Source: Candidatus Roizmanbacteria bacterium CG_4_10_14_0_8_um_filter_33_9 (GTDB lineage: Bacteria > Patescibacteriota > Microgenomatia > UBA1406 > GWC2-37-13). Taken from it: a DNA stretch of 24,503 nt. The stretch spans positions 1,724-26,226 of the forward strand of contig PFLI01000065.1 in the NCBI GenBank assembly GCA_002785065.1. The letters are read 5' to 3'. Below the pieces are notes generated by a model. The model was not told the DNA's origin. It searched no databases and saw only the letters and a program-made list of their open reading frames with translations. The position numbers and the translations under genes were made by a program. The first letter of the stretch is position 1, and every line of letters begins with the position of its first letter. Shown here piece by piece: positions 1,570 to 20,652 of this stretch.

Positions 1570-2646
1570 ATGGAAATAGATGTAACAAATGAAAAAAAGA
1601 AAGCAATTGATTTTATCGTAAATTCATCTTCTTTATCCGAGCTTATCAAAACAGAAACAGAACTTCTTGGACGAAATGGTCTTATTAATTCATTATTAAA
1701 ACAGCTCAAAAACATTATACCTGAAAAAAGAAAGACTGTTGGAATAAATATTAATGCATTAAAACAGGAAGTTATAACACTCATTAATCAAAAAAAACAG
1801 CTATTATCTCAAAAAATAGATGATAAAAATATCGATGTTACCATGCCCGGAACATCTATTAAAACGGGAACTCTCCATCCAATCACAATCGCTATTACAG
1901 AAATAAGTTCGATATTTTCAAAACTCGGATTTATACGAATGTCATATCCAGAAGTTGAGTGGGAGTATCTTGCATTTGACACTCTTAATATGCCAAAAAC
2001 TCATCCAGCACGCGATGACTTTGAAACGACATTTGTTAACGGAGAACCGCATCCAACATACGGAAAAATGATTTTAACTCCCCATACTTCGTCAGGTCAG
2101 ATTCGAGAAATGTGGAGACTTAAAAAACCACCTATTCGCATGATAAATATTGGAAAGTGTTATCGGCCCAATTGGGATGCGACACATACTCCAATGTTTC
2201 ATCAATTTGAAGGACTTTGTGTTGATACTGATATAAATATCACTCATTTAAAAGGTGCTCTTGATTATTTTGCAAAAGAATATTTTGGTGAAAATACACA
2301 AACTCGACTCAGACCGCATCATTTTCAGTTTACCGAACCATCCTTCGAGGTAGATATTAGTTGTACCATGTGCCAAGGAACAGGGATCCTTCGACAATCC
2401 CGTGATAGCGGGACTTCTCAGGATGACCTAAAAGTCAAATGTAAAATATGTAAATCCGGATGGCTTGAACTGGGAGGTACTGGGATGGTGCATCCAAATG
2501 TATTAATATCGGGAGGTATTGATCCTATAAAATACTCGGGATGGGCGTTTGGATTTGGAATCGAACGGGTTATTATGATGAAATACGGAGTCGATGATAT
2601 TCGAAATTATTACTCAGGGGACATGAGATTTTTAAGTCAATTTTAA
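1570..2646 (+). CDS. pheS: Phenylalanyl-tRNA synthetase alpha subunit, with a repeat-derived insertion in the CxxC...CxxC loop
   Basis: GTLHPIT, FDTLNMPKTHPARD, LTPHTSSGQIR, DATHTPMFHQFEG, RPHHFQFTEPSFEVD, GWLELGGTGMVHPNV and AFGFGIERVIM motifs. Confidence 0.98.
   Translation: MEIDVTNEKKKAIDFIVNSSSLSELIKTETELLGRNGLINSLLKQLKNIIPEKRKTVGININALKQEVITLINQKKQLLSQKIDDKNIDVTMPGTSIKTGTLHPITIAITEISSIFSKLGFIRMSYPEVEWEYLAFDTLNMPKTHPARDDFETTFVNGEPHPTYGKMILTPHTSSGQIREMWRLKKPPIRMINIGKCYRPNWDATHTPMFHQFEGLCVDTDINITHLKGALDYFAKEYFGENTQTRLRPHHFQFTEPSFEVDISCTMCQGTGILRQSRDSGTSQDDLKVKCKICKSGWLELGGTGMVHPNVLISGGIDPIKYSGWAFGFGIERVIMMKYGVDDIRNYYSGDMRFLSQF
2385..2427 (-). repeat. YGTC-tagged REP-like half element inserted in-frame in pheS (copy 2)
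   Basis: Reverse complement is GTCATCCTGAG-AAGTCCCGCTATCACGGGA-TTGTCGAAGGATC. It has the same GTCATCCTG start and GGATC end as copies 1 and 4, plus an inner hairpin TCCCG-tgatag-CGGGA (2398-2413). Codons 2383-2427 encode GILRQSRDSGTSQDD. Confidence 0.85.
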
Positions 2647-2650
2647 ATAT

Positions 2651-4624
2651 ATGAACATCAAAGTATTACATAGTTGGTTGCTTGAATATCTCGATACCAA
2701 AGCAACTCCTCCGCAAATACAGCAATATATATCTTTATGCGGACCTTCTGTTGAAAGTGTGGAAAAAATTCAAAATGATTGGTTGTATGATATTGAGATT
2801 ACCTCAAATCGCATTGATACGGTGTCAGTTGTTGGCATTGCTCGTGAAATATCAACAATTCTCAATCGATTTGAAATACCAGCATTATTTAAAAAACCTA
2901 TCCTTCTCGAACCGTCTTCACCAAATAACATTCTTCCTTTTACTATTAAAGATAACGGTAAACTCACAAAACGACTTATGGCAATTGTTATGGATAACAT
3001 TACGGTAAGTAAATCTCCCGATTTTATAACAAAACGGTTAGAAGCTGCTGGAATTCGTTCGTTGAGCAATATTGTTGATATAACCAATTACGTCATGCTT
3101 GAAATCGGTCATCCAACTCATGTGTTTGATTATGATCGAATTAAAACCAATACATTTATCTTAAGACATGCAAATAAAGGAGAAAAAATCACCACACTAG
3201 ATAAAAAAACGCATGACCTATATGAGACTGATATTATCATTGATGACGGAACAGGTCGTATTATCGATTTTCCTGGTATCATGGGTACTGCAAATAGTGT
3301 AGTGACTGACAAAACAAAACGCATTGTCTTTTTCATAGAATCAAATAATCCTCAAGCAATACGTAGATCATCAATGAAACATGGAATTCGAACCATGGCA
3401 GCCTCAATTAATGAAAAAAATCCTCATCCTGCGCTTGTTCAAGATGCACTTTTTCGCGGAATAGAATTATACCAAACATACGCAAAAGCAGAAATTGCAA
3501 GTCCTGTTTATGATCTCTATCCAAATCCTCTAACTTCTAAAAAAATAAGCATTGATATTCCATTTATCCATAAAAAAATAGGTGTACCAATGGATAAAAA
3601 ACAGATTATTTCAATTCTTACTGATTTACAGTTTGAGGTAAAAACTAAACAAGACAATCTTGAAATAACCATACCAACTTTCCGCTATTTTGATATGTAT
3701 GAAAAAGAAGATATTATTGAAGAGATCGCACGAATTTATGGATATCATAATATTCCAGGACAACTACCACCTTTAGCATATATCCAACAACCTAAAGATA
3801 TTGAACAAATCTTTAATTATCAAAATGTTATTAAAACATATTTAAAGCATCAAACATGGTATGAAACAATGAATTATTCCGCATATTCCAAATTGTTACT
3901 ATCTGCGTTTGATTTAAAAGAAACGGATCATCTCCATATTACTAATACAATATCAGAGGATATTAAATATCTCCGCGTATCGATTATTCCGTCACTGCTT
4001 AAAAATATCAAAGAGAACGGGGGATTCTCAACCGATTTAAAATTGTTTGAAATTGCTAAAACATATAAACCTCAAAAAGCAAGCCTTCCTGAAGAACGGT
4101 TTAAATTATCTTTAGTAACAAAAGGCTCTTTTTTGAGCTTAAAGGGATTAATTGAAGCACTGCTAAAAGAACTACATGTTGAAAAATACTCATTTACCCT
4201 GTCTTCACATCCGTTTTTTTCCTCAACTGTTCAAGCACATCTTTTAATTGAAAACGTAGTTGTTGGTGTGTTAGGTAAAGTCAAAAACTCAATTATGGAA
4301 CACATGCAGCTGACTGATTCAGTTTTTGCTGCGGAGTTTGATTTTGAAAAACTGATTGAAAAGGCACGCCTTATGCCTATTTATAAACCATACAATCCCT
4401 ATGCAGCAATCCAGCTTGATTTAACAACGCCTCTCAATCAATCATATGCAAAAATCGTCCAGATTGCGAAAGAATCCGCTCCTCATATAACTCAAATCAC
4501 CCTTAAAGATACATATAAGGATAACGTAACATTACATCTCATATTTTCCTCACCCAATAGAAACTATACAGAAAAAGAAGCACTTATTGAACTTGAAAAG
4601 ATAAAAAATAATATTTTAGTATAG
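2651..4624 (+). CDS. pheT: Phenylalanyl-tRNA synthetase beta subunit, short form lacking the B2/OB tRNA-binding insert
   Basis: IEITSNRIDTVSVVGIARE, RLEAAGIRSLSNIVDITNYVMLEIGHPTHVFD, IPTFRYFD..EKEDIIEEIARIYGY and YLRVSIIPSLL motifs; follows pheS. Confidence 0.96.
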   Translation: MNIKVLHSWLLEYLDTKATPPQIQQYISLCGPSVESVEKIQNDWLYDIEITSNRIDTVSVVGIAREISTILNRFEIPALFKKPILLEPSSPNNILPFTIKDNGKLTKRLMAIVMDNITVSKSPDFITKRLEAAGIRSLSNIVDITNYVMLEIGHPTHVFDYDRIKTNTFILRHANKGEKITTLDKKTHDLYETDIIIDDGTGRIIDFPGIMGTANSVVTDKTKRIVFFIESNNPQAIRRSSMKHGIRTMAASINEKNPHPALVQDALFRGIELYQTYAKAEIASPVYDLYPNPLTSKKISIDIPFIHKKIGVPMDKKQIISILTDLQFEVKTKQDNLEITIPTFRYFDMYEKEDIIEEIARIYGYHNIPGQLPPLAYIQQPKDIEQIFNYQNVIKTYLKHQTWYETMNYSAYSKLLLSAFDLKETDHLHITNTISEDIKYLRVSIIPSLLKNIKENGGFSTDLKLFEIAKTYKPQKASLPEERFKLSLVTKGSFLSLKGLIEALLKELHVEKYSFTLSSHPFFSSTVQAHLLIENVVVGVLGKVKNSIMEHMQLTDSVFAAEFDFEKLIEKARLMPIYKPYNPYAAIQLDLTTPLNQSYAKIVQIAKESAPHITQITLKDTYKDNVTLHLIFSSPNRNYTEKEALIELEKIKNNILV

Positions 4625-4645: not shown

Positions 4646-4790
4646 GATACTCCCCGACGCAGAGCATCGGGGCATCTATATGTGTCATTCCGGCGAAAGC
4701 CGGAATCTATATAATTCTGGATCCCGATTTTCATCGGGATGACAAACAATTTTCGCAGCAGAGCTGCGAGGAATTAAACCACTAAGGTTA
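4646..4790. mobile_element. Putative non-autonomous palindrome-bounded element (IS200/IS605- or PATE-like) with two GC-AGA-GC hairpins
   Basis: Hairpin A CCCCGA-C-GC-AGA-GC-A-TCGGGG (4652-4672) and hairpin B TCGCAGC-AGA-GCTGCGA (4753-4769) are in the same orientation about 100 nt apart. B is followed by GGAATTAAACCACTAAGGTTAAA. The boundaries and the family call are inference. Confidence 0.5.
4684..4743. repeat. YGTC-tagged REP-like double-hairpin element (copy 3, intergenic, nested between the GC-AGA-GC hairpins)
   Basis: GTC-ATTCCGGC-GAAA-GCCGGAAT-CT...GG-ATCCCGAT-tttc-ATCGGGAT-GAC; TGTCAT/ATGACA termini as in copy 1. Confidence 0.9.
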
Positions 4791-4791
4791 A

Positions 4792-5364
4792 ATTATTAAT
4801 AGTTTTATCTACTATCGTTCATGCAGATCAAAACCGAGATATTCTTTTTTTAAAAAGATGGACAAAAACCTGAGAGACGCAAAATTAAATGAAATACATT
4901 TTCGATCTACTTTCATTGTAGATATCGTAGCATTTATACTCATGCCGAATCATTATCATTTTTTACTGAAACAACTAAAACAAAATGGAATTATTTCTTT
5001 TATGTCAAATAGTATAAATTCAATTACAAGGTTTTATAATGTGAAAAATGAGAGAAAAGGTCCTGTATTTTTACCTCAGTTTCGCTTTAAACGAATTTTA
5101 TCGATAGAACAGCTTGTTTATACATCAAAATACATACATACAAATGCTTATACTGCCAACATAATTAATACAAAAGAAGAAATCATTAAATATCCATATT
5201 CATCAATGAGTTGCTATATAGCTCAAAATATTTTACAAATCAATTTAAAACCTGTTTTGAGTTATTTTAATCATAATACAAATAAATATATTGATTTTAT
5301 TCAGAAAAATACCCAGAATAATACAGAAAGAGAGATTAATAGTCATATCAATCAATGGAGTTAA
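4792..5364 (+). pseudogene. REP-associated tyrosine transposase (RAYT, Y1 HUH family), 5'-truncated
   Basis: HUH motif FILMPNHYHFLLKQ, then N..NERKGPVF...F, (Y1) KYIHTN and YPYSS. The frame extends upstream of the ATG at 4858 to a TAA at 4789-4791 (IINSFIYYRSCRSKPRYSFFKK), and the usual N-terminal YYHvxNRG segment is absent. Confidence 0.75.
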
Positions 5365-15798: not shown

Positions 15799-16314
15799 TT
15801 AATATGTTTTCTCCCAAATTGAAAATACCGAATTAATTGGAACACGATATACTGTACCTGATTCGGTCCACTCTACTATAATCGAAACATTAACTTTATC
15901 AATGTATGCGTCAGTTTCAGAAACTGTTAGAGGAGTTAATGTGACATACCGACGATACATTATATTTAAAGTGAATGGACAACTGTTAAGGTCAATAGTG
16001 GAAGACGAAACCCACCCGGCAATAGGTGAGGTATTAAAACAAAATGTGTATGGTAATTGTGACGCTTTATATGTAAAAGAGGTTGTATCTGTATTGTTGC
16101 CTCCCCAATTTAATTCTTTTTCTGCACTTAACCATTCATACAGCTCATCAGCATAATGTTTTGCAAAAATTTTATGTTCATTGACTTTAGAAACTCGAAG
16201 AGAAGCTATCATAACTCTTACTGCTACAACAAAAAAGAGACTTAAAATGGTAATAAATATAAGAACCTCAATTAATGAAAAAGCTACATTTAATTTTAAT
16301 TTATAGCTGCACAT
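15799..16314 (-). CDS. Minor pilin, PilV/GspI-like (start revised to ATG 16314)
   Basis: Class III signal A|FSLIEVLI, then A..YADELYEWL and C-terminal V.IIVEW.E. TAATG overlap with the upstream gene; 2 Cys in the mature protein. Confidence 0.83.
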   Translation of the reverse strand: MCSYKLKLNVAFSLIEVLIFITILSLFFVVAVRVMIASLRVSKVNEHKIFAKHYADELYEWLSAEKELNWGGNNTDTTSFTYKASQLPYTFCFNTSPIAGWVSSSTIDLNSCPFTLNIMYRRYVTLTPLTVSETDAYIDKVNVSIIVEWTESGTVYRVPINSVFSIWEKTY

Positions 16315-16838
16315 TAAGGACAGGTACAATTAGTAACACAGTTGCTACAAGTTGAGCAAAACCCATCACTAATAATAGAGTTAGCAGATACTTTAATATA
16401 ATTGCATTTATCGAGAATCTCACTTTTAACTACAAAACATGTACAGGTAACTTTTCCATAATTCGGATTAAAATCTATTGAATTTGGATAAATATATATA
16501 TTATTAGATACAGCATACGTAATCGATTGAGGATCACTTTCTATACAGTGAGGAATAATTTGATACGATTTTCCTGCCACATCAACCTGAAAAGTAAAAT
16601 CTTGAACTTCAGGTACGCTTGATTCATTAAATGGTGTACATAAAGAACGATCTCCTGAGTTGGTTTTTGACTTGGTAAGTTCAAGAATTGTCATAACTTT
16701 TTTAGTTTCATTTTTCAATTGTTTTTCATTCGTAAAACGGTTAATAGTTGAAAGAGAAATAGTTGAGAATATAGCAATAATAACAATCACAACTATAAGC
16801 TCAATCAGCGTAAAACCTTTTAAAGATGAAGATTTCAT
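16314..16838 (-). CDS. Minor pilin, FimT/GspH-like, with a Cys-rich C-terminus
   Basis: G|FTLIELIVV signal and L......V...LELTKSKT helix; 10 Cys, ending CSTCSNCVTNCTCP. Confidence 0.83.
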   Translation of the reverse strand: MKSSSLKGFTLIELIVVIVIIAIFSTISLSTINRFTNEKQLKNETKKVMTILELTKSKTNSGDRSLCTPFNESSVPEVQDFTFQVDVAGKSYQIIPHCIESDPQSITYAVSNNIYIYPNSIDFNPNYGKVTCTCFVVKSEILDKCNYIKVSANSIISDGFCSTCSNCVTNCTCP

Positions 16839-16841
16839 ATA

Positions 16842-17279
16842 TTAAAGTTGACCATATGGCCCCATACAATAATTACAATACGCATCAGTACTATGACACG
16901 ATGGAATTGGAGAACAAACAGTGAAGCTTCCGCTTTCTAGGTGAACTCCAAAAGTATATGTATTACCATCTGAAAAGTAATAGTATAATTCACTTTGCTT
17001 AGGATCAGTAGGTATCTTGGACATATATGTGTTTCCTGATGCATCGACTAATGCTGCTCCAAATGGTAAACCCGGAGGAGAAACAGGGGATGTAGGGTAT
17101 AGGTCATTACTGCTCTTGTACATTTCCAAGGCGGAACGAATTAATTCAACATCGGCTTTTCTCCGAGCATCACGAGATTGCTTTAAAAACTGAGTATATG
17201 AAACAATACCGGCAACGGCAAGAAACCCAATAATGGTTGTTACAACTAATATTTCAACCAATGTAAAAGATTTTTGCAT
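16842..17279 (-). CDS. Type IV pilin, GspG-like (start revised to MQKS|FTLVE)
   Basis: S|FTLVEILVV signal, SRDARRKADVELIRSALEMY...LYP, YMSKIPTDP; 4 Cys. Confidence 0.88.
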   Translation of the reverse strand: MQKSFTLVEILVVTTIIGFLAVAGIVSYTQFLKQSRDARRKADVELIRSALEMYKSSNDLYPTSPVSPPGLPFGAALVDASGNTYMSKIPTDPKQSELYYYFSDGNTYTFGVHLESGSFTVCSPIPSCHSTDAYCNYCMGPYGQL

Positions 17280-17280
17280 A

Positions 17281-17700
17281 TTATTGTTGATTGGAAACAC
17301 AAAATGTACTTACGCTTTCTTCGGATTCAAAAACTCGCGCCGCTTCACGAGTCGGAATACATAATGAATATGATACCCCATCGTCTGGAGCAGTATATAC
17401 ATATGGATCATCTGTTTTTGGATCTTTTGGAGCTAAAGTCATAATAACTGTAGAAGGGTCTTCACAATAAACAGAACCGATATCAGGTGTGTTAATAGGC
17501 GTAGGATATTTGTAACCACAAACTGAATAATATTGCTCAACTGCTTTTTGGATCGTATTTATATCTGTCTTTCGCTTTGTATCTCTTGCTTTTTTTTGAG
17601 CAGTTGAAAATGAAGAGGTAATAATTGTCATAATCACGCCAATTATTCCTAAGACAACAAGCATTTCGAGTAAAGTAAAGCCAAATTGTTTATTTTTCAT
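17281..17700 (-). CDS. Type IV pilin, GspG-like
   Basis: G|FTLLEMLVV signal, ARDTKRKTDINTIQKAVEQYY, PKDPKT...Y.Y; 4 Cys. Confidence 0.88.
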   Translation of the reverse strand: MKNKQFGFTLLEMLVVLGIIGVIMTIITSSFSTAQKKARDTKRKTDINTIQKAVEQYYSVCGYKYPTPINTPDIGSVYCEDPSTVIMTLAPKDPKTDDPYVYTAPDDGVSYSLCIPTREAARVFESEESVSTFCVSNQQ

Positions 17701-17707
17701 ATATGTA

Positions 17708-18169
17708 TTAAGGTTGGAGAACTTTATAACATTTGTTTGACGAACATGTATATCCTGTCACCGTATTAAAATCACCTGGACATGATTCAACGTCTATATC
17801 CCCAACATTATCTAAACATGCATACATAGTATATGTACTATCATCATCGTTTGTTGAATAATAATATTTTCTTGCTGATGCAGCTGGACAGTTAGAGCTT
17901 GGATCTTTAGGAACTTTATTCATATAAACAATCGTGCCTGAAGACCAAGTATTGCATGGAAGTGCAGGAATAATAGATGGATATAATTGAGGAGTCTGAT
18001 TCTGTTTATATAATTCAAGAGCATTTTGTAACTGTCTTAAGTCTGACTTCCTCTGAACATCTCTTGTTCGCTGCCGCGATTCAATATAGTTGGGTAAAAG
18101 AAGTGTTGTTAATATGGCAATTATTGCAATTACAACCAATATCTCAACCAACGAGAATGCTTTTTTCAT
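17708..18169 (-). CDS. Type IV pilin, GspG-like
   Basis: A|FSLVEILVV signal, RDVQRKSDLRQLQNALELY...YP, YMNKVPKDP; 6 Cys. Confidence 0.88.
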   Translation of the reverse strand: MKKAFSLVEILVVIAIIAILTTLLLPNYIESRQRTRDVQRKSDLRQLQNALELYKQNQTPQLYPSIIPALPCNTWSSGTIVYMNKVPKDPSSNCPAASARKYYYSTNDDDSTYTMYACLDNVGDIDVESCPGDFNTVTGYTCSSNKCYKVLQP

Positions 18170-18172
18170 AAT

Positions 18173-18901
18173 CTATATATTTATAGTAACCTTCTTCTCA
18201 ATAAAAAGCAAGAGATTGTCCAATGCAAGTGCAACATTGAGATTATTGTTTTCTATTTTATGTTTAATAAAAAAAAGATATTTTAAAATTTCGGGGTAAA
18301 TGTCATCCTGGGGAATCCCGCTCTGTGGGATGACTCCAGGATCCGTAGATTCTGGACAATCAGAAGTGGTGCCAGAATGACGTAACTTGTTTGCAAAATA
18401 ATAAATAAATTCATTAATATATTTCAATACATCTTCTTTTTTAATGTTCGCTAATTGATCGTGACATAATGGATTCCTCTTTTTATTTTCAATAAGAAAG
18501 TCCAAAAGAGGGGGTATTTCATTTACATGATTTGCAACTGTATTAGTGATTTTAACGGAAACTACTTTCGCTCTGGAACGAATTGTCGGAAGCAAAGAAT
18601 ACAGATTAGAAGTTATAAGAACAATATGATTTAAGTCTTTTTTTTCTTCCAAAACTTTAAGTAGCATATTTTGAACTTCCCAAGAAGTACTCTCAAACCT
18701 ATAAAAAATAAATAACCGATCACTTGGAAAACGTATCGTAAATAATTTCAGAATGCTTTTTACTTCTTCTATGGTTAGCTCAGTTTTTTCAGGTATAAAT
18801 CTGTAAATATGGGTTGAATTAATAAGGTGTTTACGAATAAATGCATTAAGATAGTTTTCAGTGTCTTCTTTAGTTTGAGAACAAAGAATAATAGGAAGCA
18901 T
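18173..18901 (-). CDS. holB: DNA polymerase III delta-prime-like (HolB-like) clamp-loader subunit, short form, with a 27-aa repeat-derived insertion
   Basis: LTIEEVK, QNMLLKVLEE (cf. NALLKTLEEP), IVLITSN...LLPTIRSR (SRC-like Arg finger), and C-terminal NNLNVALALDNLL. No P-loop is visible. Confidence 0.75.
   Translation of the reverse strand: MLPIILCSQTKEDTENYLNAFIRKHLINSTHIYRFIPEKTELTIEEVKSILKLFTIRFPSDRLFIFYRFESTSWEVQNMLLKVLEEKKDLNHIVLITSNLYSLLPTIRSRAKVVSVKITNTVANHVNEIPPLLDFLIENKKRNPLCHDQLANIKKEDVLKYINEFIYYFANKLRHSGTTSDCPESTDPGVIPQSGIPQDDIYPEILKYLFFIKHKIENNNLNVALALDNLLLFIEKKVTINI
18302..18381. repeat. YGTC-tagged REP-like double-hairpin element inserted in-frame in the holB-like gene (copy 4)
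   Basis: GTC-ATCCTGG-gga-ATCCCG-ctctg-TGGGAT-gact-CCAGGAT-Ccgta-G-ATTCTGG-acaatcagaagtggtg-CCAGAAT-GAC. Bases 18302-18382 are exactly 27 codons on the minus strand (RHSGTTSDCPESTDPGVIPQSGIPQDD). Confidence 0.9.
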
Positions 18902-18907
18902 ATGTTA

Positions 18908-18936
18908 TTGCATTCTAACAAAAATATATCTATATT
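18908..18936 (+). promoter_or_regulatory. Sigma70-type promoter for pilB-pilT-pilC, leaderless geometry
   Basis: TTGCAT-N17-TATATT-N6-ATG(18943). Confidence 0.6.
18912..18920 (-). promoter_or_regulatory. Extended -10 promoter for the holB-pilin operon
   Basis: Minus strand reads TGtTAGAAT-N10-ATG(18901). Confidence 0.55.
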
Positions 18937-18942
18937 TAAAGA

Positions 18943-20652
18943 ATGAATATTCCACCAAAACAATTCATCGAAACTCTGGTACAAAAGCAGCTTATTACTC
19001 AAGAAGAAGGTGATAAATACGAAATGGAGTCATTGAACAAAAATCTCCCTATTTATGATTATCTGCTCGTATATGGAAAGCTTAAAAAAAGCGATATACT
19101 CAAATCTCAAGCTGAATTACTTCATGTCCCATTTGTCGATATTAATACTATTGCTGTTAGCCCTGAAGCATTAGCTTTTATTTCTGAATCCATTGCACGA
19201 AAATATATTATATTACCTTACTCATATGATTCAAAAACCGATTCAATTTATGTAGCAACTGCTCATCCGCTTGATTTTTCGTTAAATGATTTTTTAGAAA
19301 AAAAAACAAATAAAAGAATTATTTTATCGCTTGGAAATAAAGAAGATATTATTAAATCTATTAATATGGTTTATATCCATGGACTATCTCCAGAGGTTAA
19401 AGAAGCTCTTGCGGAGGTATCGGGATATAATACAGATAATACAAGCGAACAAATTACCACTATCGTAAAAGAGGCTCCTATAGCAAAAATAGTAAACACT
19501 ATCCTTGAATTTGCCATGAAAGGACGTGCTTCAGATATTCATATCGAACCTCAAGAAGATAAAACAAGAATTCGTTATCGAATCGACGGAGTTTTACAGG
19601 AAAAACTAACCTTACCAAGAAGTATTCATGATTCCCTTGCATCAAGAATAAAAATTCTTTCCCAAATGAAAATTGACGAACGAAGAATCCCGCAAGATGG
19701 TCGCTTTAGTTTTAAAGTTGGAAATGAAGAAGTTGACCTTCGCGTATCATCTCTTCCAACAGTACACGGTGAAAAAATAGTTATGAGAATTCTTAAAAAA
19801 ACAGGTGGTCTTCCTATGCTTCATGAACTTGGACTTCGTGGAACACAATATAAAGACTTAGAAGAAGCAATCCTCAAACCATATGGCATTATTCTTGTTA
19901 CCGGACCCACTGGTTCAGGAAAAACTACCACACTGTATTCTATTTTAACAAAATTAAATAAACCATCGGTTAATATCGTTACCCTCGAAGATCCGGTTGA
20001 ATATGAAATTGTGGGTATTAATCAAGTACAAATTAATCCCCAGGCAGGTTTAACATTTGGAGCAGGTCTCCGTTCATTTCTTCGACAAGACCCAAATATT
20101 ATTCTTGTTGGAGAAATCCGGGATAAAGAAACTGCTCAACTTGCAATCCAAGCCGCTCTTACTGGACATCTTGTTTTTTCAACCCTCCACACCAACGATG
20201 CCGCTACTGCGATACCACGGCTTATTGATCTGGGAGCAGAACCCTTTTTAATTTCATCTGTCTTAAATGCATCAGTTGCTCAACGTATTTCACGTACTGT
20301 CTGCCCACATTGTAAAGAACAATATGAACCTGTCGAAACAATTAAAGAAAATATTAAATCTATACTTGGACCACTTCTTCCTGCTAAATATCAAACATCA
20401 CCAATTATGTTATCTCGAGGAAAAGGTTGTGTGGAATGTAATTTTTCAGGATATTTAGGAAGAATCGCCATATTTGAAGTCTTAAAAATAACTCCAATAA
20501 TTAATAAAATGATTCTACAGCAGGCATCAGCGCGTGAAATTGAAGCACAAGCAAAGAAGGATAGTCTTATTATTATGAAACAAGACGGGTATTTAAAAGC
20601 TCTCGAAGGTATAACCTCTCTAGAAGAAGTTTTACGAGTTGCAGAAGTATGA
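18943..20652 (+). CDS. pilB: Type IV pilus assembly ATPase PilB/GspE family
   Basis: ASDIHIEP, RIRYRIDG, RIPQDGRF, GPTGSGKTTTL, TLEDPVEY, LRQDPNIILVGEIRD, TGHLVFSTLHTN, and Zn motif CPHC...CVEC. Confidence 0.97.
   Translation: MNIPPKQFIETLVQKQLITQEEGDKYEMESLNKNLPIYDYLLVYGKLKKSDILKSQAELLHVPFVDINTIAVSPEALAFISESIARKYIILPYSYDSKTDSIYVATAHPLDFSLNDFLEKKTNKRIILSLGNKEDIIKSINMVYIHGLSPEVKEALAEVSGYNTDNTSEQITTIVKEAPIAKIVNTILEFAMKGRASDIHIEPQEDKTRIRYRIDGVLQEKLTLPRSIHDSLASRIKILSQMKIDERRIPQDGRFSFKVGNEEVDLRVSSLPTVHGEKIVMRILKKTGGLPMLHELGLRGTQYKDLEEAILKPYGIILVTGPTGSGKTTTLYSILTKLNKPSVNIVTLEDPVEYEIVGINQVQINPQAGLTFGAGLRSFLRQDPNIILVGEIRDKETAQLAIQAALTGHLVFSTLHTNDAATAIPRLIDLGAEPFLISSVLNASVAQRISRTVCPHCKEQYEPVETIKENIKSILGPLLPAKYQTSPIMLSRGKGCVECNFSGYLGRIAIFEVLKITPIINKMILQQASAREIEAQAKKDSLIIMKQDGYLKALEGITSLEEVLRVAEV

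Follow-up and report, generated by a model that had tools for sequence, protein, structure and literature searches.

Introduction

The closest described counterparts of the element studied here are the CGTC-tagged REPs, which Di Nocera, De Gregorio & Rocco (2013) defined by a terminal CGTC or TGTC tag (variant CCTC) and A-T-first stems (PMC3733652). These REPs have stems of 8–9 bp, loops of 4–5 nt, and an unpaired tail with the consensus CCA; they frequently form inverted dimers or heterodimers and have no associated transposase (PMC3733652). Intragenic dimers of CGTC and GTAG REPs encode 20–30 residues and are often found in genes for DNA synthesis or repair and in tRNA synthetase genes. The same study equated the RPE-4 and RPE-6 repeats of R. 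conorii with CGTC families and included the Neisseria dRS3 repeats in the superfamily (PMC3733652). In-frame insertions of the RPEs (RPE-1 to RPE-10) were described by Ogata et al. (2000/2002), according to a summary within PMC10969869.

We analyzed a stretch of DNA of 24,503 nucleotides (the window) from an ultra-small groundwater bacterium of the Microgenomates group of the Patescibacteria/CPR. The source genome consisted of 195 contigs totaling 1.07 Mb, with a GC content of 33% and an estimated completeness of 92.7%. Our literature search found no report of REPIN/RAYT, MITE, or palindromic elements in Patescibacteria, and the earlier REP survey, to judge by its date, probably did not include the phylum Patescibacteria/CPR with its Microgenomates group.

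The host gene encodes a short delta′-like protein

The minus strand of the window contains an ORF at 18173–18901 that encodes a short delta′-like (HolB-like) clamp-loader subunit of 242 aa, as identified from the ORF, profile matches, and fold. The original prediction had named a HolB-like host, and this identification held. The Pfam profile DNA_pol3_delta2 matched the protein with 45 bits (cut-off 27). Only profile positions 67–158 were covered, and since the match was confined to the second half of the profile, the usual P-loop region is missing. The holB models were all below their cut-offs (NCBIfam holB, 48.3 bits against 180.6). When a structural model of the host protein was searched with Foldseek, the best solved folds were 2gno, 3glh_E, 1jr3_E, and 1a5t (E 1e-7 to 3e-6, TM ~0.42). 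These best matches include TM0771 and E. coli delta′, pointing to a clamp-loader fold with its C-terminal helical domain. Residues T106, I107, S109, and R110 were invariant across the orthologues, and the Ser-Arg of the sensor/'SRC' motif was present. Without the insert described below, the protein would have 215 aa, and orthologues across the family are equally short (~215–240 aa). A tblastn search of the host protein against its own genome returned a repeat copy as the sole other match, so the delta′-like gene is single-copy.

In the 16314–20652 region, holB is followed on the minus strand by four or more consecutive genes for type IV pilin-like proteins whose N termini carry methylation motifs. 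The first of these starts 3 nt after the holB stop codon, a spacing suggestive of co-transcription. A gene for a 569-aa PilB/GspE-type ATPase (18943–20652) is transcribed divergently from holB.

The insert is an inverted dimer of tagged units

The insert spans 18302–18382 (81 bp), reads GTCAT...ATGACG, and corresponds exactly to codons 174–200 of the host ORF (27 codons, minus strand). It encodes the peptide RHSGTTSDCPESTDPGVIPQSGIPQDD, which is rich in Ser, Asp, Pro, Gly, and Thr, between the flanking residues YYFANKL and IYPEILKYLF. Its GC content was 54%, compared to 27% in the remaining part of the gene. The GC-rich island, its bounds, its length in codons, and its flanks, which had all been noticed in the original prediction, were reproduced from the sequence. 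The 21-mer from the left end of the insert had two matches in the window and none in 100 shuffles.

The prediction had also taken the insert for a complete double-hairpin copy, and indeed two units, with relatives throughout the genome, were found. Because the base T at 18301 belongs to the tag (TGTC), the repeat itself extends over 18301–18382, while the 27 codons occupy 18302–18382. The repeat is complete and pairs two tagged REP units in inverted orientation, their tags pointing outward, TGTC on the left and CGTC (minus-strand reading, 18382–18379) on the right. Unit 1 (18301–18343, plus strand) has the 'GGGA...GACT' type of interior, as delimited by the unit alignment (row C172_+_20024) and the DNA fold. 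It consists of the tag TGTC, an outer stem ATCCTGG/CCAGGAT, a nested inner hairpin, and a closing C. This outer stem differs from the family stem by a T-to-C and a pairing A-to-G change, and a few other copies have the same variant. A 4-nt spacer, CGTA (18344–18347), separates the two units; other copies have spacers of 0–12 nt. Unit 2 (18348–18382, minus strand) has the 'CACC...ATTGT' type of interior, the tag CGTC, and the stem ATTCTGG/CCAGAAT. At least five further copies in the genome, on contigs C173, C39, C141, C29, and C189, match it with 100% identity.

The insert is present in independent assemblies

Aquifer and groundwater samples that had been assembled with MEGAHIT, SPAdes, or by JGI (JGI and ENA assemblies) yielded 23 contigs encoding the identical 242-aa protein, and the DNA of the gene was identical in all ten contigs examined. 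In four runs, Logan contigs reached 18374 from the unique left flank and, on the other side, ran from 18353/18354 into the unique right flank. The junction-spanning contigs had unique sequence on one side and 29–73 nt of the element on the other, and none of the Logan contigs from these four runs skipped the element. Read support had been named as a check in the original prediction, and both the junctions crossed by contigs in four runs and the identical gene in independent assemblies bear on it.

In four metagenome runs from groundwater or aquifers, the bins at 18334–18395 had a summed contig depth ~40–120 times as high as the flanks. Extra contig pieces mapped to 18344–18382, the region of unit 2, and the Logan contigs broke there. 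The ~40–120-fold depth at 18344–18382 indicates that the unit is very abundant across the community. These breaks inside a high-copy unit, together with the fragmentation of the genome into 195 contigs, are what speaks for an artefact of assembly or binning, with a repeat wrongly joined into a gene of a fragmented MAG. Against it, the same protein came from different samples and assemblers, contigs spanned each junction, and the reading frame was preserved. As independent contigs had identical DNA, we rejected an artefact, to which we assign next to no probability.

Orthologues lack the insert

We compared the host protein with 17 orthologues, four of which were metagenomic homologues and 13 of which came from family-level genomes and genome records. 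All 17 lacked 20–23 residues at the exact place of the insert in the alignment. The insert segment was also absent from all nine metagenomic homologues, which include the four counted among the 17. Consistently, tblastn matches in the relatives broke at query residues 172–177 and resumed at 194–205. A gap of about 27 aa in orthologues had been expected; the gap is at the exact site in every orthologue, but its size is 20–23 residues. The insert-free orthologues hold no equivalent segment, only about six residues (e.g. KEKQAP) where the window has repeat-encoded residues alone. The net gain in holB is thus 21 residues, not 27, which means that either the insertion was not clean or the loop was altered afterwards.

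The genome of a member of the same genus (99% complete, 6 contigs) contained no unit of the family, even when a relaxed pattern was used. No allele with an empty site was found in a collection of 5.8 billion proteins, where the nearest insert-free orthologue was 54–62% identical, depending on the alignment. Judged from these comparisons, with unit 2 identical to other copies and the same-genus genome free of the family, the insertion is lineage-specific and probably recent.

The element belongs to a mostly intergenic repeat family

A census of the source genome found 41 tagged units (35 with CGTC and six with TGTC) and 28 complete elements of 56–130 bp. Each unit followed the same grammar of a tag, a 7-bp outer stem ATTCTGG...CCAGAAT, and a closing C. 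The outer stem ATTCTGG/CCAGAAT occurred in 40 of the 41 units, the holB copy having ATCCTGG/CCAGGAT, and a single C followed the stem in all 41, CCA being absent. The unit interiors were 16–30 nt long and fell into three types, most of them with a nested inner hairpin. The complete elements consisted of two inverted units, 0–12 nt apart with their tags outward, and some had extra modules. Inverted ends (CGTCATTCTGG and its complement) were present in the elements. The flanks of the listed copies showed no consistent direct duplication of a target site, and there was no empty site to compare.

The elements were strongly biased toward intergenic positions. Only seven of the 28 lay wholly within stop-to-stop ORFs of at least 100 codons, although such ORFs make up 92% of the genome; the other 21 did not (binomial P ~1e-17). 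Five elements (~18%), which were 67–96 bp long, lay inside genes whose homology continues on either side of the element. Besides the holB copy, these were in-frame copies in the anticodon-binding domain of LeuRS (C173:2429–2495), in DHFR between profile positions 73 and 74 (C138:6376–6469), in a PMT-like glycosyltransferase (C96:10191–10267), and in the prepilin peptidase A24 between its two domains (C2:1001–1078). While 41 of 168 element reading frames were free of stops, all five genic copies were open in the frame of the host. Four of the five, holB and three others, shared an RHSG... reading. With all genic copies open and in frame, the host genes would by implication be translated through the repeat.

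Comparison with orthologues confirmed a gap for three of the genic copies, namely those in holB, LeuRS, and DHFR. Relative to the same-genus genome (G001), LeuRS had a net gain of 21 residues from a 23-codon element, and DHFR had a net gain of 23 residues from a 32-codon element. In all three checked cases the net gain was smaller than the element (21/27, 21/23, and 23/32 codons), and a few residues of the host loop were missing beside each. The host sites in holB, LeuRS, and DHFR are variable loops. The pattern of genic copies is that expected if the repeats landed at random and only the copies that kept the frame and were free of stops survived in needed genes.

The in-frame, stop-free state of every genic copy also bears on the idea that the segment is an intron- or intein-like intervening sequence, so that the 27 residues are missing from the mature protein. 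Such a state would be unexpected of a segment that is cut out of the RNA; moreover, an intein would need far more than 27 residues, and no intron of Rfam matched. The strong secondary structure of the element would suit an intervening sequence, with nothing more direct in its favor, and we regard this reading as extremely unlikely.

The window contains three further palindromes of related build. A single unit lies in frame in pheS (2383–2427, minus strand), with the stem ATCCTGAG.../...AGGAT and an inner hairpin. As the original prediction had correctly reported, this copy begins GTCATCCTGAGAAGTCCCGCTATCACGGGAT. The pheS-type 'CATCCTGAGC..GTCGAAGGAT' module was also found on contigs C49, C107, C110, and C138. 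An intergenic dimer at 853–906, of a related AT-loop subfamily (GTCATCCTGA...CAGCATGAC) with many genomic relatives, follows the same grammar of tag and A-T stem with a different stem, ATCCTGA/TCAGGAT. A TGTC-tagged intergenic dimer with the stems ATTCCGG and ATCCCGA is located at 4684–4743, between an ORF ending at 4624 and an ORF starting at 4858.

The insert as a probable tolerated loop

To place the insert in the protein, we used an AlphaFold2 model of the host, which was built from a 10-sequence alignment (mean pLDDT 72.8, pTM 0.51). Residues 178–198 had pLDDT values below 50, and the remainder was mostly between 70 and 90. The insert (174–200) was positioned between two predicted helices, 155–176 and 198–218, of the C-terminal helical domain. 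The alignment columns are empty at the insert, and this alone may explain its low pLDDT. An inter-helix loop, which had been put forward as a structural check, is what the model returned, at low confidence, and the 27-residue insert is probably an exposed and disordered, or floppy, loop.

We consider it very probable that the insert is one copy of a selfish tagged REP repeat that is tolerated as a translated loop of the delta′-like protein. A palindromic, non-coding repeat composed of CGTC/TGTC-tagged REP units as an inverted heterodimer would have landed in the holB-like gene, at a variable surface loop between the C-terminal helices of this single-copy delta′ protein. The copy would then have persisted as a passenger, its 27 codons read as a Ser/Asp/Pro/Gly/Thr-rich loop that is probably disordered and neutral or nearly so in its effect. 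As the copy was free of stops and the host frame was kept, purifying selection would not have removed it. Selfish spread followed by purifying selection leaves just the pattern seen around the holB insert.

The original prediction went further and described a second independent domestication of the same repeat subfamily in a replication protein. An in-frame repeat in a loop of a replication protein was borne out, but a gain of function was unsupported, and the pheS unit is a different unit type within the same tagged-palindrome superfamily rather than a member of the same subfamily. If the loop had been exapted, selection would be keeping it for a role gained in the clamp loader, such as a new contact in the collar domain. 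The fixed, intact state of the insert across all 23 contigs and the frequent reports of intragenic REPs in replication and repair genes (PMC3733652) are both in keeping with such a role. The fixation carries little weight, as the contigs examined are clonal, with the same gene DNA, no differences, and an aquifer or groundwater origin. The insert is absent from all 17 orthologues and the repeat family from the same-genus genome, and the identity of unit 2 with intergenic copies leaves no time for adaptation. The loop is predicted to be unstructured, and the same peptide frame occurs in unrelated enzymes, which argues for tolerance rather than a specific function. We consider exaptation very improbable; the insert is most likely a tolerated 27-residue loop and not a new function.

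A role of the nucleic acid itself was also weighed, in which the hairpins would act in the mRNA of a holB-pilin operon (by pausing, RNase protection, or attenuation) or in the DNA as a protein-binding site, and the coding would be incidental. The insert region folded better than shuffled sequences (z = -2.5 for RNA and -3.75 for DNA), the 3-nt spacing to the pilin-like gene suggests that the two are co-transcribed, and REPs elsewhere are thought, according to PMC3733652, to stabilize mRNA or to terminate transcription. However, the hairpin lies ~130 nt upstream of the gene end within translated sequence, where ribosomes would unwind it. An intrinsic terminator was rejected, as neither a terminator-like site nor a U-run was found at the insert, and no known RNA family of Rfam matched at E values up to 1. 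We regard the nucleic-acid role as an improbable explanation of the insert, and it would be compatible with the tolerated selfish copy as an added role.

Distribution in Patescibacteria and mobilization

The exact pattern of tag and stem was present in seven of 41 relatives. Among 301 sampled genomes of Patescibacteria, the exact tag with the 7-bp outer stem (GTCATTCTGG...CCAGAATC) was found in 20, which belong to many families (e.g. G234, G090, G270, G265, and G060), and the reversed control pattern gave no match in this sample. The unit interiors differed between genomes with their pairing kept. A strict dimer pattern, applied to five REP-bearing relatives, matched G011 only. A phage origin was rejected after blastn returned no match among 50,697 phage records.

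Genes with Y1 domains (IS200/RAYT-like, Y1_Tnp) were present in the source genome and in most relatives, with or without the repeats. In the source genome, no Y1 gene was flanked by family units or located near one. A RAYT-like ORF of 228 aa (C113:254–940) matched NCBIfam REP_Tyr_transpos with 36.8 bits, below the cut-off of 80, and had no unit nearby. The positions of REPs and Y1 genes did not coincide in G009, G011, G013, or G037. ORFs of ~215–250 aa with partial Y1_Tnp matches were seen in most relatives, none of them beside CGTC units. Genomes with repeats had ~4.7 Y1 matches each, compared to 1.7 in those without; we gave this difference no weight, since the repeat-bearing genomes are related to one another and a match count is not a copy number. 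Three REP-rich genomes (G234, G090, and G265; 90–99% complete, 19–35 unit matches each) had no Y1_Tnp match, and the family therefore does not seem to depend on RAYT. With these genomes at hand and no Y1 gene flanked by units, mobilization by RAYT/IS200 was rejected.

It is possible, though we hold it to be the less probable case, that the holB insert is one product of an undescribed family of tagged palindromes that spans the phylum. Such a family would imply either a conserved and still unknown trans-acting enzyme or frequent horizontal spread, and its repeats would time and again supply the essential proteins of ultra-small genomes with new loops.

Comparison with known systems

A lone insert in holB represents no new mechanism in itself. 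What the family adds is that selfish palindromes are tolerated in single-copy essential genes (clamp loader, LeuRS, and DHFR) of a 1-Mb genome of which ~92% is long ORFs, and that the inserts mark protein loops able to accept 20–30 extra residues. Such inserts inflate protein lengths and break both homology matches and short-read assemblies, and annotators of CPR genomes should expect them.

Compared with MITEs (reviewed in PMC10969869), the elements are likewise small, non-coding, and present in multiple copies, with terminal inverted repeats and occasional in-frame fusion to ORFs, but they show no evident target-site duplication, nor was any parent IS found whose ends match. REPINs (Bertels & Rainey 2011, PMC3116915) are similarly built of two inverted REP hairpins with a short spacer and reach tens of copies per genome; they carry a GTAG tag and are associated with a REP-flanked RAYT, whereas the tag here is CGTC and no Y1 gene is flanked by units.

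The RPEs provide the closest parallel for the genic copies. They too are selfish palindromes of a small genome that lie in frame in unrelated housekeeping genes at fold-compatible places, as do the copies in holB, LeuRS, DHFR, peptidase A24, and the PMT-like glycosyltransferase, and they share one conserved peptide reading across host genes, as do four of the five copies here. The link between RPEs and the holB element runs solely through the statement on RPE-4 and RPE-6 in PMC3733652. RPE-1 is ~150 bp long, in contrast to 67–96 bp for the genic copies here, and the RPE host is an alphaproteobacterial intracellular parasite rather than a CPR bacterium. Nearly half of the RPE copies (three families) are genic compared to ~18% (5/28) here, and expression has been shown for RPE-bearing proteins, while translation of the present inserts would follow from their sequence.

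The features described for CGTC-tagged REPs offer the best fit, by analogy of those features. The units here differ in having a 7-bp outer stem with a nested interior of 16–30 nt, where CGTC REPs have a stem of 8–9 bp and a loop of 4–5 nt, and in having a single-C tail instead of CCA. They are alike in the unpaired terminal CGTC (35 units) or TGTC (six units) and in the A-T composition of the first two stem pairs. Both are multi-copy and mostly intergenic with a minority within ORFs, are mostly arranged as inverted dimers and often as heterodimers, encode 20–30 residues when a dimer lies in an ORF, and have no flanking transposase gene. By these features, the holB element would belong to the CGTC-tagged REP superfamily, and intragenic CGTC-type REPs, the RPE-like elements, would extend to the candidate phyla radiation.
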